From: Octopus vulgaris
Taxonomy: Eukaryota
Length of the DNA: 64,000 nt
Direction: 5' to 3'
Assembly (NCBI GenBank): GCA_951406725.2
Contig: OX597814.1
Location: forward strand, 142,352,001 to 142,416,000
Made by a program: the position numbers and the translations under genes. Under the pieces are notes generated by a model. It was not told the DNA's origin and ran no database searches. It saw only the letters and a program-made list of their open reading frames with translations. Of this stretch, positions 7,030 to 61,603 are shown one piece after another (within the stretch, counting starts at the first letter, position 1; each line of letters opens with the position of its first letter).

Positions 7030-7235
7030 AAATGTAACCGCGTGTGTATCATTGGCGATTTTCCCCCCTCTTCCCTTCCTTTGGACTTTCCTCTATTTCT
7101 GAAGAAGAGCTTGGCTCGAAACGTTAAATCCTCTTTCCCTCCTTTCCTGAGCGTCTGATAATACAGTACTTGTACCACGTCCTCGCGTTATTGTTTTTTC
7201 TTGTTTGGATTTCTTTGTTTGGATTCACTATACAT
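7030..7235 (+). mobile_element. PLE-type short repeat with minimal type I hammerhead (7095-7129)
   Basis: ATTT-CTGAAGA-A-GAGC-TTG-GCTC-GAAA-CGTT-AAAT, with palindromic stem III AACGTT. Confidence 0.75.
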
Positions 7236-12199: not shown

Positions 12200-12700
12200 A
12201 CATGCATATATGGGTACAGGACATCAAAAATAAACGTCAACAAAATGAGAAACGAGAACATAAGAAACAAAAACATAGAAAACGAACTTTTTTTCGAACA
12301 ACGAAAAAAATAAACAGAGAAACGAGACATGCAACATAAAGAACATTCCCTTCTTCAGTTGTCCCCTGTTTTATTTACTCCACATATCGAAGGTAAGGAC
12401 AAGACGCGACTTCGTTAAAACAGTCCTTCCCGCAAAGCAAATTAAATAAAATTTCAGATTTTTTGCAGAGGGTGAAGGTGGTAACAAAACCAGGACAGTG
12501 AGAACAAAACAGTAAAAACAAACGGTAAGGGCTGTTTAGCCAAGACGATGTGATGTGGTGAACGCTGGAAAAACGAGCTTTGAGAAGAGACAGATGAAAG
12601 CACATCTTGTCTTTAAGAAGGAAGTGGAAGAAAGATGGATAGCTGTTGGTCACGTGTGAGCAACGAGAGAGTCAAGGAGAACGCCACGCATCCTTTTCCA
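12200..12700 (-). mobile_element. PLE-like 3' repeat carrying rearranged hammerhead motif (12347-12410), degenerate copy
   Basis: Minus strand GTCGC-GTC-TTGTCC-TTA-CCTTC-GATA-TGTGG..GGACAA-CTGAAGA-A-GGG; similar to 40885-41230. Confidence 0.6.
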
Positions 12701-15057: not shown

Positions 15058-17879
<2,822 letters not shown>

Positions 17880-18076: not shown

Positions 18077-18725
18077 TTATGAAATACAGTTAATTTAGTT
18101 GATAAAACTACGTCTAATAAAAAGAAATTATATAACAAAGGAAAACTGTTTGAATATCGGTTGTCTTTCTATCAGTCTGCGTATTTATCTGTCTATCTGT
18201 TTATATATCTAACTATTAACGTGTACATGTATGTATGTATCATATAGAAGCATACACGTGTAAACATGAGTGTGTCTGTGTGTGTTTTGTGTTCGTGTGA
18301 TCATGAGAATGTGTACACGCACGCTTATGTGTAGTACACAATGAAAAGAATCAAAAGTAATTATTTTAATAAACATAAGCGTCATTATAATTACATCAAG
18401 GATGTGTGTATCCTTATCTATAGATAAAGATACATAGAAAGACAGAAGACAGAAAGGACCCAACAAAACAAGAGGAGACACGTGGGAGGGAGAGTCGCTG
18501 AAGAGGTCACAGGATGTGTGACAAAATATTTCAGACAAAAGGACATAAAATAAGAAAAATAATTAATTTGAAGTGAAGAATTATGTGAGAGTAATTGTTG
18601 AATAAAAAAATGACCATCCCGAAAAATAACAATAACAATATAAGAAACATACATACATACACACACATATTATATATATGTATGTGTGTGCGTGTGTGTA
18701 TATATGCATGTATGCATGCATGCAT

Positions 18726-24782: not shown

Positions 24783-24940
24783 ACGCTGGAGTTGAACTAG
24801 GGACGGCTGATGAAGGGGATTTTCCTTGTGTAGTTGTCTTGTACTCTGTTTTTTCGTTGTTAAAGGAATGGTCCGTTCCATGCTGTTTTTACGTTTTCGT
24901 TTCTCGTTGAGTTCTACGTCTATTTGTGGTGTCCTGTACA
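24783..24940 (+). mobile_element. Truncated copy of the rearranged-hammerhead repeat family
   Basis: GGGACGG-CTGATGA (24807-24813)-A-GGGG and downstream GTCCTGTAC, shared with the copies near 12.2, 40.9 and 52.0 kb. Confidence 0.55.
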
Positions 24941-25114
24941 CACGTATATATATTTATATATGCATGTATATATACATGTAGATGTAGGTACGTACATATA
25001 TGTTTGTATGTATGCATATATTTTATTTATTACACTATTGTATGACTGAGCGTCTTCGCGTCGATTCGATTCGATTCGTTTGGTTTCGTTTCGTTTCTTC
25101 TTGTTCTCTAAGCT

Positions 25115-25181
<67 letters not shown>

Positions 25182-25184
<3 letters not shown>

Positions 25185-26843
25185 CGAAAAATATGTCCTA
25201 CTAGCCATAGATGAAGTGGACACAAACTCAGCTGCTGGTCCAGATGGTTTCCCAGCCATCCTCTTCAAAGCGTATAAGCATGCCCTGGCAAAACCCCTCA
25301 AGATTCTCTTCCAGAGCTTTCTTGCGAATGGCAAACTGCCAAGCAAGCTGAAGGAGGAAATAATATGCCCAATACATAAAGGGGGAAGTAGAGCAGATGC
25401 CAAAAACTATAGGCCTATCTCTCTGACTTCACACATCACCAAAGTCATGGAACGGATAGTCAGAAAGAAACTAATCGCATTCCTTGAGGAAAATAACTTG
25501 CTGAGTGATACCCAGCATGGTTTTCGACCAGGTAGGAGCTGCCTGACCCAACTCTTACAACATTATGACTGGGTGTTGAGGCAGTTACTCAACAAATCAA
25601 ATGTGGACGTAATCTACCTTGATTTTGCAAAAGCTTTTGACAAGGTGGATCATTGTATGATATGTCACAAACTGCGTGACCTCGGCACAGCTGGAAAACT
25701 TGGAGTGTGGTTACATGACTTCCTGAAAGGTAGGAGTCAGGCAGTTGTGGTTAATGGAGCCACCTCTATGAACACACAAATAGTGAGCGGTGTTCCACGG
25801 GGCATTGTCTTGGGACCACTGCTTTTTATAGTAGCCCTCTCAGATATGCCCTCAAATGCCCGGATAGCCACTCTGGCCAGCTATGCAGACGATACAGAAC
25901 TCCAGCGATGTTGCACACCTGCAGCAGGAGTTGGATTCAATCTACAGCTGGGCTGAGGATAATAATATGCAGTTTAATGCTGAAAAATTCCAGGCCCTGC
26001 GCTACCAGCATCCAAAACTGAATATTAAACTTACAGGATACACCTGTCCACAGGGAATTTCAATCCCAGAGCCTAAGTCTGTGAGGGACCTGAGTATCGA
26101 CATAAGTGATGACACCTCTTTCCAAGTGCACATTACTAGGATGGCAACAAAGTGCAGACGACTGGCTGGGTGGATCCTAAGAACATTCAGAACCAGAGAT
26201 AAGGAAACCATGATGCTCCTCTGGCTGACATTCGTCCTCAGCTACCTGGATTACTGCTCACAGCTATGGTCACCCACCAGTGTAAAATTAACAGCGGACC
26301 TTGAAGCAATCCAGAGAAGATTCACAAAGAAGATCGTCTCTTTGCAACAGCTCAGCTACTGGGAAAGGTTGAAACAGCTAAGACTCTACTCCCTGGAGAG
26401 AAGACGGGAGAGGTATGCAGTAATATATGTCTGGGAGATCCTGGAAGGAATCGTGCAAAATTTTGGCATTGTAAGCTACACCAATGCTAGAACGGGACGA
26501 CACTGCATAGTGCCAAAGATCCCAGCAATGCCATCACGCTTCAGGACCAGCTTCTGCAACAGCCTGGGTTTCAAGGGCCCACAGCTTTTTAATATTCTCC
26601 CAAAGAGTCTGAGGAACTTGCACAAAGTAGATGTAGCGGTTTTTAAATCAAAGCTGGACATCTTCCTGTCAAGAGTCCCAGATGAACCTACCTCACGGCA
26701 AGAGGTGCAAATGGGAGTAGCTATATCAAACTCCATTCTTTACCAAGTGCCACATGTTAGACGAGGTTCTTCGTAATAACAGTGTAGCACAAAATGGCGG
26801 TGCATCAGCATGACCGCAGCTCTGAGCTGAAACTAGAAAAAAA
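25182..26843 (+). pseudogene. 5'-truncated CR1-like LINE (ORF2 RT and C-terminus), frameshift after YADD
   Basis: AAGPDG, YRPISLTS, QHGFRPGRSC, YLDFAKAFDKV, SGVPRG, YADD; second frame has LDYCSQLWSP and LYSLERRRER; stop at 26776, then a short tail. Confidence 0.9.
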
Positions 26844-26894: not shown

Positions 26895-27058
26895 TGGACG
26901 TCACCAACAGTGCAAATAACATGAAATACGTAAACAAATGAGGGAATCCAAGTGAAATACGTAAACAACTAGAAAAAATGGAAAACAGGACAAGTAAACA
27001 CAGAGAAAGGACCCTCCATCAGTTGTCGGCTGTCTATCTACCCCTCATTTTGAGCATT
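26895..27058 (-). mobile_element. Truncated, degenerate copy of the rearranged-hammerhead family
   Basis: Minus strand GCTC-AAAA-TGAGGG..GACAA-CTGATGG-A-GGGT; the NUH strand is missing. Confidence 0.45.
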
Positions 27059-27105
<47 letters not shown>

Positions 27106-40884: not shown

Positions 40885-41230
40885 ATATGGGTACAGGACG
40901 TAAAAAACGTGAACAAAATGAGAAACGAGAGCACAAAAAGCAAAAACATGGAAAACGAACATTTTTAAAACAACGAAAGAAACAAAGAAACGAGACAGGC
41001 AACATAAAGAACATCCCCTTCATCAGTTGTCCCCTGTTTTATCTACTCTGCGTTTCGAACGACGAGACAAGACGCGACTTTGTTAAAACAGTCGTCCCCG
41101 CTAAGCAAATTAAGAAAAAATTGGAATTTGTAGAGTGTTAAAGTGACGACAAAAAAAGGACAGTGTGAAGAAAACAGTAAAAACAAGCGGTAAGGGTTGT
41201 TAAGCCATAATGAGGTGAAGTGGTGAATGC
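40885..41230 (-). mobile_element. PLE-like 3' repeat carrying the rearranged hammerhead
   Basis: Similar to 12200-12560; contains the motif at 41014-41078. Confidence 0.65.
41014..41078 (-). ncRNA. Candidate non-circularly permuted hammerhead ribozyme, intact core
   Basis: GUCGC-GUC-UUGUCUC-GUC-GUUC-GAAA-CGCAG-linker-GGGACAA-CUGAUGA-A-GGG. Confidence 0.65.
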
Positions 41231-51879: not shown

Positions 51880-51918
<39 letters not shown>

Positions 51919-52114
51919 GTGATAAATAAAAATATATGCATACATACAAACATATATGTACGTACCTATATCTACATGTATATATACATGCATATATAAA
52001 TAATTATACGTGAGTACAGGACACCACAACCTGACGTAGAAATGGTAAAAACAAAAAAACAAAACAACAAGAAAACGAAAAAAACAGTTACAAGACGTGC
52101 TACACAAGGAAAAA

Positions 52115-52176
52115 ACCCCCGTCATCAGCTGTCGCTAGTAGACTCAAGCATGTTTCGAAGGCAAGACAGAACACTA
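52115..52176 (-). ncRNA. Candidate non-circularly permuted hammerhead ribozyme, intact core, divergent subfamily (repeat ~52010-52400)
   Basis: UAGU-GUU-CUGUC-UU-GCCUUC-GAAA-CAUG-linker-GACAG-CUGAUGA-C-GGGGGU. Confidence 0.65.
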
Positions 52177-52402
52177 ATCCACTAGGCCTTCCTGCGAGAG
52201 AATTAAAATAAAATTCCAAGCAGCGGGGCAAAATGAGTACAAACACGAACAGGACGTAACAATAAGACTGCTAAAAATAAAAAAATACATGTACAAAAAA
52301 TACAAATAAATACAAAACGAGAAAATAAAAAGAGAATACGATACGGGAAATCAAACACACAAGAGGACGAACGAAAAAGCCTTTTTTTCTGGCATAGACG
52401 GA

Positions 52403-52461
<59 letters not shown>

Positions 52462-52828
52462 TACAAATTTACACATACACACATACATACAAATACACAC
52501 ATATATACACATCCAAACATGCAAAAAGACACAGACATACATGCATATACACCAAAGAAAATACATATATAAAAACATATAGAAATATACACATATATAT
52601 ATACACAGATGTACACACTATATGCACGCGTGTTAATGTATCCATGCACAAAAATTTGCATATACAAACAAGTATGCATACATACATACCTATGCATGTA
52701 TATACATATATAGACATAAACATTGAATATATTCATGCGCAAACACAAAAACATACAAGTATATACATACATGCCTACATACGAATATATATATACATAT
52801 ACATACATATATATATACACACACACAA

Positions 52829-59863: not shown

Positions 59864-61603
59864 CAGAAAGTTACCCAGAATAACAAATTCTATCGTAAAA
59901 TTTTGTTGTATACCCAATTGAATATTAGCTAATAACCCATTTTCTATAGCGATGTTTGAACAAAGTTTTAATAATTTTACAGAAAGTTACCCAGAATAAC
60001 AAATTCTATCGTAAAATTTTGTTGTATACCCAATTGAATATTAGCTAATAACCCATTTTCTATAGCGATGTTTGAACAAAATTTTAATAATTTTACAGAA
60101 AGTTACCCAGAATAACAAATTCTATCGTAAAATTTTGTTGTATACCCAATTGAATATTAGCTAATAACCCATTTTCTATAGCGATGTTTGAACAAAATTT
60201 TAATAATTTTACAGAAAGTTACCCAGAATAACAAATTCTATCGTAAAATTTTGTTGTATACCCAATTGAATATTAGCTAATAACCCATTTTCTATAGCGA
60301 TGTTTGAACAAAATTTTAATAATTTTACAGAAAGTTACCCAGAATAACAAATTCTATCATAAAATTTTGTTGTATACCCAATTGAATATTAGCTAATAAC
60401 CCATTTTCTATAGCGATGTTTGAACAAAATTTTAATAATTTTACAGAAAGTTACCCAGAATAACAAATTCTATCGTAAAGTTTTGTTGTATACCCAATTG
60501 AATATTAGCTAATAACCCATTTTCTATAGCGATGTTTGAACAAAATTTTAATAATTTTACAGAAAGTTACCCAGAATAACAAATTCTATCACAAAATTTT
60601 GTTGTATACCCAATTGAATATTTGCTAATAACCCATTTTCTATAGCGATGTTTGAACAAAATTTTAATAATTTTACAGAAAGTTACCCAGAATAACAAAT
60701 TCTATTGTAAAATTTTGTTGTATACCCAATTGAATATTAGCTAATAACCCATTTTCTATAGCGATGTTTGAACAAAATTTTAATAATTTTACAGAAAGTT
60801 ACCCAGAATAACAAATTCTATCATAAAATTTTGTTGTATACCCAATTGAATATTAGCTAATAACCCATTTTCTATAGCGATGTTTGAACAAAATTTTAAT
60901 AATTTTACAGAAAGTTACCCAGAATAACAAATTCTATCGTAAAATTTTGTTGTATACCCAATTGAATATTAGCTAATAACCCATTTTCTATAGCGATGTT
61001 TGAACAAAATTTTAATAATTTTACAGAAAGTTACCCAGAATAACAAATTCTATCGTAAAGTTTTGTTGTATACCCAATTGAATATTAGCTAATAACCCAT
61101 TTTCTATAGCGATGTTTGAACAAAATTTTAATAATTTTACAGAAAGTTACCCAGAATAACAAATTCTATCACAAAATTTTGTTGTATACCCAATTGAATA
61201 TTTGCTAATAACCCATTTTCTATAGCGATGTTTGAACAAAATTTTAATAATTTTACAGAAAGTTACCCAGAATAACAAATTCTATTGTAAAATTTTGTTG
61301 TATACCCAATTGAATATTAGCTAATAACCCATTTTCTATAGCGATGTTTGAACAAAATTTTAATAATTTTACAGAAAGTTACCCAGAATAACAAATTCTA
61401 TCATAAAATTTTGTTGTATACCCAATTGAATATTAGCTAATAACCCATTTTCTATAGCGATGTTTGAACAAAATTTTAATAATTTTACAGAAAGTTACCC
61501 AGAATAACAAATTCTATCGTAAAATTTTGTTGTATACCCAATTGAATATTAGCTAATAACCCATTTTCTATAGCGATGTTTGAACAAAATTTTAATAATT
61601 TTA
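59864..61603. repeat. Tandem array, 15 x 116 bp, with a 5-monomer higher-order repeat
   Basis: Units start at 59864, 59980, 60096 ... 61488; variant pattern of units 6-10 recurs in units 11-15. Confidence 0.95.

Follow-up and report, generated by a model that had tools for sequence, protein, structure and literature searches.

Examination of a 64,000-nucleotide stretch of the Octopus vulgaris genome (contig OX597814.1, positions 142,352,001 to 142,416,000; here named the window) revealed a motif on the minus strand near 52 kb whose blocks follow the S-G-C order of a type-SGC (non-circularly permuted) hammerhead. Thousands of Penelope-like non-coding repeats carry it, and from its sequence and that of its relatives, we consider it probable that this hammerhead cuts its own transcript between 52170 and 52169 and works as a two-state switch. 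Read 5' to 3', the 52-kb copy consists of GUGU-U (52174-52170), CUGUC, UU, GCCUUC, GAAA-CAU, 16 nucleotides, GACAG, CUGAUGA, C, and GGGGGU. The same block order is found in the copy at 41 kb, with GCGU-C, UUGUC, GUUC, GAAA-CGC, GACAA, CUGAUGA, A, and GGGG. A profile search identified five family copies in the window, three of full length (52 kb, 41 kb, and 12.4 kb) and two truncated at the 5' end (Table 1).

Table 1. Features of the ribozyme family in the window (positions in the window; strand, where given).
Feature	Positions	Strand	Remark
Solo terminal-repeat-like copy, ~490 bp, of the non-coding repeat in (TA)n	51918-52404	-	homologous to both ends of the partial tandems of loci L031-L033
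(TA)n flank, 5' side of the element	52405-52463		
Leader strand X (GCAG-GAAGGC)	52186-52195	-	GAAGGC can pair with Y (six Watson-Crick pairs), or AGGAAGG with W
Helix a, 5' strand	52176-52185	-	
Block S: stem III 3' strand GUGU and H17 = U	52170-52174	-	predicted cut between 52170 and 52169
Block S: stem I strand CUGUC	52165-52169	-	
Block G: strand Y (GCCUUC)	52157-52162	-	C11.1 at its end
Block G: GAAA and stem III strand ACAU	52150-52156	-	
Helix a, 3' strand	52135-52144	-	the "linker" of the preliminary description
Block C: stem I strand GACAG	52129-52133	-	
Block C: CUGAUGA and one extra nucleotide (C)	52121-52128	-	
Strand Z (GGGGGU)	52115-52120	-	stem II partner of Y in the preliminary description
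Strand W	52107-52113	-	pairs with X (helix b) or with Z (hairpin)
(TA)n flank, 3' side of the element	51881-51917		
Second full ribozyme copy, branch C'	40991-41104	-	X GACG, Y CGUUC
Third full-length copy, branch C	12323-12436	-	damaged core (GAUA)
5'-truncated copy, branch F	26986-27059	-	starts ~10 nt past the predicted cut
5'-truncated copy, branch A	24789-24839	+	starts ~20 nt past the predicted cut

A preliminary description had derived a rearranged hammerhead fold from paired differences between the 52-kb and 41-kb copies. The minus strand indeed carries the changes it listed for stem I (CUGUC/GACAG at 52169-52165 and 52133-52129 against UUGUC/GACAA at 41 kb) and for the triplet (GUU against GUC). 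Those in stem III (ACAU/GUGU against ACGC/GCGU) are also present; here G-C to A-U is a true double change and C-G to U-G is single-sided. The claim that CUGAUGA and GAAA are invariant failed, as the third full copy that we found in the window (12436-12323), which may differ from the third one compared there, reads CUGAAGA and GAUA. The linkers do differ in sequence, as had been noted, but they are not free and form a covarying helix (helix a).

These copies are part of a large family of mobile repeats. Exact-pattern counts covering the whole genome (2.8 Gb, 227 contigs) gave 2,807 matches for a core pattern (54 for the reversed control), 1,208 for a second core pattern that overlaps this set (control, 27), and 3,192 for the core pattern of the divergent branch F (control, 10). 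At least about 5,900 copies in the genome have intact core boxes. Patterns drawn from the flanks alone yielded 2,958, 2,016, and 873 matches compared with 8, 0, and 0 in the controls. Both core boxes were exact in only 15 of 30 copies sampled via the leader alone, so individual inserted copies decay, and selection is visible only between branches. A metagenome scan with a similar pattern gave 47 matches, none of them with the cleavage block, and a scan of viral sequences gave none.

The order of the blocks, the core, and stems I and III agree with type SGC; a stem II of that type is putative, and cleavage at the site is predicted. CUGANGA, GAAA, A15.1-U16.1, and the NUH triplet are all present, and the core columns stand at 97 to 100% in 157 full-span rows, an invariance that is partly built in because copies were picked by patterns containing the boxes. 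In the same rows, H17 is U in 68, C in 66, A in 22, a gap in 1, and never G, and position 7 is U in 133, A in 21, and C, G, or a gap in 1 each. An H17 that is never G and a free position 7 are known hammerhead rules.

The fold corresponds to that published as type SGC in the accessible sections of Eckert et al. 2023 (PMC10085705), which report ribozymes from metatranscriptomes with cleavage validated in vitro and, except for one GCS candidate, no RNA from the genome of a known organism. The SGC descriptors given there require CUGAUGAG or CUGAUGAUG and allow no link longer than 15 nt; re-implemented, the published descriptor matched 2 of 189 genome copies. A relaxed version, which left position 7 and the identity of 0 to 2 extra nucleotides free and tolerated a link of 25 nt and a shortened stem III, matched 125 of the 189, with 0 of 189 on the opposite strand. 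In the window it matched two sites, compared with none in 100 of 100 shuffles, so the motif exceeds what chance would produce. The motif was probably overlooked until now because the published descriptor is too strict.

The octopus motif resembles HRIMA-1 and type SGC, as far as these are described in the accessible text (PMC10085705), in its S-G-C order, its complete set of core nucleotides, the extra nucleotide after CUGAUGA, the predicted cut site, and a short link between stems I and II. In contrast to those ribozymes, which come from metatranscriptomes and occur beside hairpin ribozymes, it is chromosomal and present in thousands of copies within a retrotransposon-type repeat. Furthermore, its extra nucleotide is mostly A, its link from stem III to stem I is longer, and its 5' leader contributes helix a and a rival stem II. 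Rfam at the gathering threshold gave no match within the window. Eckert et al. was the only open-access work retrieved on permuted hammerheads of type SGC, and the accessible parts of open-access papers on hammerheads with octopus, Penelope, truncation, or retrotransposition (including PMC13725137 and PMC11662667) describe no permuted hammerhead in a genome. In Forgia et al. 2023, none of six terms for extra-helix hammerheads occurs.

Pair counts were based on the first loci, where 122 pattern matches were found. Thirty were dropped for an unrecognizable leader (truncated, rearranged, or, in four cases, a chance match), and 58 of the remaining 92 copies were aligned. Stem I was paired in 91.6% of cases with double changes in four of six pairs, stem III in 94.1% (two of five pairs), helix a in 76.0% (6 of 10), and helix b in 91.0% (two of six, its changes being mostly one-sided). 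In 45 hand-picked copies representing all branches, stems I, III, and X:Y together were 95.1% paired and 12 of 16 pairs were double-changed; shuffles of these copies were 78.8% paired and slid alignments 29 to 43%.

Could this covariation reflect nothing but the shared ancestry of branches, with no selection on structure? The copies are related and the counts are per sequence, and in a mutual-information scan without phylogenetic correction branch markers dominated, with only two stem pairs in the top 25. Because of this kinship, a tree was built from the flanks only (95 copies, two or three of them visibly misplaced), and changes were scored on clades of at least three copies. Among six clade-level changes in I1 to I5, five were Watson-Crick swaps and one was a break; all four changes in III2 and III3 were swaps, the outer pairs III4 and III5 being noisier; and X:Y showed three swaps and no break. 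At least a dozen separate clade-level swaps in stems I, III, and X:Y on a stem-free tree, together with the collapse of the slid controls, speak against ancestry as the sole cause, a reading that is already largely refuted and that we hold to be very improbable. Watson-Crick swaps in stems I and III were seen in comparisons of five branches. The main claim of the preliminary description passes the test set there, since substitutions in both stems are correlated in larger alignments.

Helices a and b, both of which draw on the leader, may bring the outer ends of stems I and II together; helix a covaries. The energy of helix a ranged from -6.0 to -8.3 kcal/mol within branches and from -1.8 to -5.9 kcal/mol between them. 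RNAalifold recovered stem I alone. Pseudoknot-free folding did not yield the ribozyme, gave no greater stability than shuffles (z from -0.9 to +1.0), and favored a rival hairpin between block C and sequence downstream of it. A downstream hairpin formed by the stem I strand and the sequence after W was rejected, as it fitted best at slide -1 (83% paired, one double-changed cell; the count was one column off) and had no covariation support.

For stem II, two strands come into question. The preliminary description paired Z with Y (GGGGGU/GCCUUC); six base pairs with three G-U are possible, but they require one extra C (52121) after CUGAUGA, and at 41 kb only three pairs form before a G-G mismatch. 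In the 58 copies, Z:Y was 96.4% paired with none of its four pairs double-changed; paired changes support the fold in stems I and III. The Z:Y pairs are G-C, G-U, G-U, and a fourth, two of the four being G-U; the fourth is broken in branches C and C' (across a 49-copy clade and in 10 of 10 C' copies).

Y pairs better with the leader at 52191-52186, beyond the coordinates first considered. Leader X lies 30 to 35 nt upstream of Y, and X:Y was paired in 98.3% of cells (99.1% across branches), with three of five pairs swapped (GAAGG/CCUUC, GAACG/CGUUC, and GAGCA/UGCUC). Among 43 genome copies with Y = CGUUC, X has the matching C in 27, G in 14, mostly single mutants in other branches, and another nucleotide in 2. 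A sixth X:Y pair arose by double change in the branch of the window copy (C-G in 44 and A-A in 36 of 102 copies). The support for X:Y exceeds that for Z:Y in every count.

These counts could mean that the leader itself supplies stem II. The active fold would then use X:Y and open the core between A9 and G10.1. The sequence following CUGAUGA would form a separate hairpin, and stems I and II and helix a would meet in a three-way junction. This would be a fourth-block permutation, which none of the six types in Eckert et al. covers. Such an arrangement would account for the near-complete pairing of X:Y and its swaps without a clade-level break, for the joint change of X and Y in 27 of the 43 copies, and for the sixth pair. 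It would also fit the invariant G-C next to GAAA, which starts X:Y in the 10.1-11.1 pattern, and the stacking of X:Y (-9 to -10 kcal/mol, against -4 to -7 kcal/mol for Z:Y). It sits poorly with two features of Z, whose first base, preceded by an extra nucleotide that varies, is G in 177 of 189 copies, in the style of Penelope hammerheads, and whose hairpin with W is weak or absent in branches C, C', and F (0 to -1.2 kcal/mol). Penelope hammerheads have an extra nucleotide between 9 and 10.1 and a G10.1-C11.1 pair, according to the accessible text of PMC4209133, and an extra nucleotide after CUGANGA is also part of the SGC descriptor in that of PMC10085705. We regard a leader-supplied stem II as rather unlikely, though a serious contender, and moderately favor a switch in which Z:Y is the active stem II.

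The leader bears on this switch in a further respect, as X can equally pair with W downstream of Z. Comparing median stack sums for Z:Y with X:W and for X:Y with the Z:W hairpin gave a gap of 3.7 to 4.4 kcal/mol in each of the five groups, leaving aside the additional loop penalty of the Z:Y and X:W state. This near-constant gap of ~4 kcal/mol suggests a balance of two states. Master lineages lacking the first G of X were not found (60 genome matches: A in 38, T in 13, and C in 9), nor were any lacking the first G of Z (non-G in 13 of the first 100, near the rate at neighboring positions).

An earlier hint had been that truncated copies begin inside the ribozyme. The 5' ends were therefore mapped relative to the predicted cut in two samples, several being hand-corrected at TA-run alignments; positions are good to about 1 nt. 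The first sample comprised the first 100 matches on contig 1 to a 3'-end pattern blind to the ribozyme; 38 extended past -229, leaving 62 ends. Of these, 16 fell in +1 to +21, where 2.8 were expected, and 1 in -21 to -1 (ratio, 5.6; Poisson P, 6e-8; scan-corrected, 5.5e-4), the interval having been chosen on this sample and four of the 16 ends having been known beforehand. For the second sample, the first 70 of the 873 branch F matches, the interval was fixed beforehand. Nine ends fell in +1 to +21 (1.7 expected; P, 8e-5), or 11 if those at -1 and -2 are assigned by microhomology, and none in -73 to -22; one internal deletion was scored as running through.

This roughly five-fold excess in two independent samples is likely a footprint of cleavage in vivo, and the accumulation of truncated copies just past the predicted cut indicates that the motif likely cuts its own RNA. 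The ends scatter over 21 nt and are not concentrated at +1. On the simplest reading, the cut RNA would have been the template and a few nucleotides would have been lost at integration. As a separate observation, the inversion junctions of fold-back copies often lie inside the ribozyme (L004, L007, L038, L106, L260, L291, and L540).

An alternative without catalysis is that cleavage has been lost and the fold is kept for protein binding, template switching, or fold-back priming; the excess of 5' ends would then stem from polymerase stalling at stem III or Y, or from nicking near the palindromic TTCGAA. The ends do gather along the borders of Y and stem III, several inversion junctions lie there, stem II is weak, and the published minimal Penelope hammerheads cleave poorly in vitro, as stated in the accessible part of PMC4209133. 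However, helices I and a (+22 to +43), which are stronger and would be met first by a polymerase, have no surplus of ends (4 of 100 and 1 of 70 copies), and the excess stops at the predicted cut. Together with the NUH rule and the free position 7, which are catalytic and not structural signatures, this makes loss of cleavage improbable.

The 52-kb motif occupies the middle of a ~490-bp U-rich segment flanked by (TA)n runs. Elsewhere, this segment occurs at both ends of a unit, with a same-strand spacing of ~750 to 985 bp in 10 loci, and an inverted truncated copy often adjoins the unit. The copies have variable 5' ends and 3' ends that reach into (TA)n, and Pfam gave no match in any of the four open frames overlapping the element. 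The carrier is thus a non-coding repeat of Penelope-like architecture with (TA)n on either side. It shows three features of Penelope products, namely partial tandems, inverted copies truncated at the 5' end, and microsatellite targets; for endonuclease-bearing Penelope-like elements, partial tandems, inverted truncated copies, and a (TA)n bias are described in the accessible text of 10.1101/2021.04.23.441226.

Animal retrozymes are non-autonomous Penelope-like derivatives with type I hammerheads, according to the accessible portions of PMC7229834 and 10.64898/2026.07.22.740005. Like these non-LTR retrozymes, the octopus repeat is non-coding and AT-rich, has one hammerhead per unit, occurs as monomers and short tandems, and has a unit size within the range reported there (up to 972 bp). 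Unlike them, it carries an SGC hammerhead, while retrozymes are defined by, and searched with, the type I hammerhead; moreover, its copies are mostly solo or 5'-truncated and are known from DNA alone. Judged by sequence, the repeat is a retrozyme-like Penelope derivative and, as it lacks the type I hammerhead, not a retrozyme as defined. With the minimal Penelope hammerheads, as portrayed in the accessible text of PMC4209133, it shares the extra nucleotide between 9 and 10.1, the G10.1-C11.1 pair, and a position within a terminal repeat of elements that occur as tandem and inverted copies. Those hammerheads have no stable stem III and are thought to be dimeric, whereas the octopus motif has a full stem III of 4 to 5 bp and looks monomeric. 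With Naiad elements (Craig et al. 2021, 10.1101/2021.04.23.441226, accessible text), the repeat shares (TA)n targets, partial tandems, inverted 5'-truncated copies, and a high copy number; in contrast to it, Naiads encode EN-RT and are reported there without hammerheads, canonical descriptors only having been used.

A Naiad open reading frame linked to the repeat was absent from the loci examined, and tblastn searches of the loci with two reverse transcriptase (RT) queries returned only unlinked neighbors. Two candidates for an autonomous parent were rejected: the L081 family (4,271 bp, RT and GIY-YIG) has no CUGANGA on its coding strand, and the RT beside the motif at L170 belongs to a young element nested in an older copy. 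No autonomous element carrying the motif was found, and since the two young or active RT families examined lack it, we infer a mobilizing partner. The L081 family (G000:C1:27841000-27850900) is itself a very young two-ORF Penelope-like family with a 4,271-bp tandem unit and a frame for a 775-aa RT with GIY-YIG; all of its 136 scored matches share 100% identity across 285 aa. Another young RT family, at L241:5585 (+), has a minimal hammerhead-like motif in its 3' end, in which U3 and A8 replace C3 and G8 and stem III is palindromic.

In the mechanism that we propose, the active fold would have Z:Y as stem II, set off by one extra nucleotide in the manner of Penelope hammerheads. Leader X would hold W and, with helix a, splint the outer ends of stems I and II. 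The hairpin state, X:Y with Z:W, would be the holding or off state of a two-state RNA switch, so that only part of the transcripts would be cut. A Penelope-type reverse transcriptase/endonuclease acting in trans would copy the RNA into (TA)n. Long and tandem copies would come from RNA that was left uncut or joined again, and copies starting just past the cut from cut RNA. Two cuts in one tandem would release a unit of ~850 to 950 nt, whose ends, held by helices a, b, and III, could circularize.

A further-reaching proposal, that a monomeric hammerhead with a leader-donated stem II or a two-partner toggle drove thousands of retrotranspositions and that the genome records the RNA cut site, is possible but doubtful. 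If true, Penelope-type elements reported without ribozymes may have their "missing" ones in motifs of this kind.

Independently of that proposal, the octopus copies bring genomic evidence to the open question of whether Penelope-type hammerheads cut the RNA that is reverse transcribed. They take non-circularly permuted hammerheads from environmental RNA into the chromosomes of an animal, where the copy number is high and natural covariation runs deep, and they show why standard descriptors fail on them. The conserved rival helix provides either an on/off design for a ribozyme that is natural and testable, or another, new wiring of the hammerhead core.

Searches under four coded organism labels (runs X1, X2, X15, and X17) yielded 85, 30, 204, and 138 contigs on the element at a likeness of at least 80%, and the family is therefore probably not limited to one species. 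Minimal type I hammerhead-like motifs in canonical order were also seen in other repeats, at 7099 (+) and 380 (-) in the window and at L045:4217 (-), and some canonical-order motifs share an extra A after CUGANGA. The open frames at 24988-26773 (+) and 16545-17642 (-) of the window resemble LINE reverse transcriptase fragments. Finally, the window holds a 116-bp tandem repeat at 59864-61603 (15 copies, 98% identical) and, at 18498 and 19375 (+), identical contexts of ~110 nt that lie 877 bp apart and form a local direct repeat.
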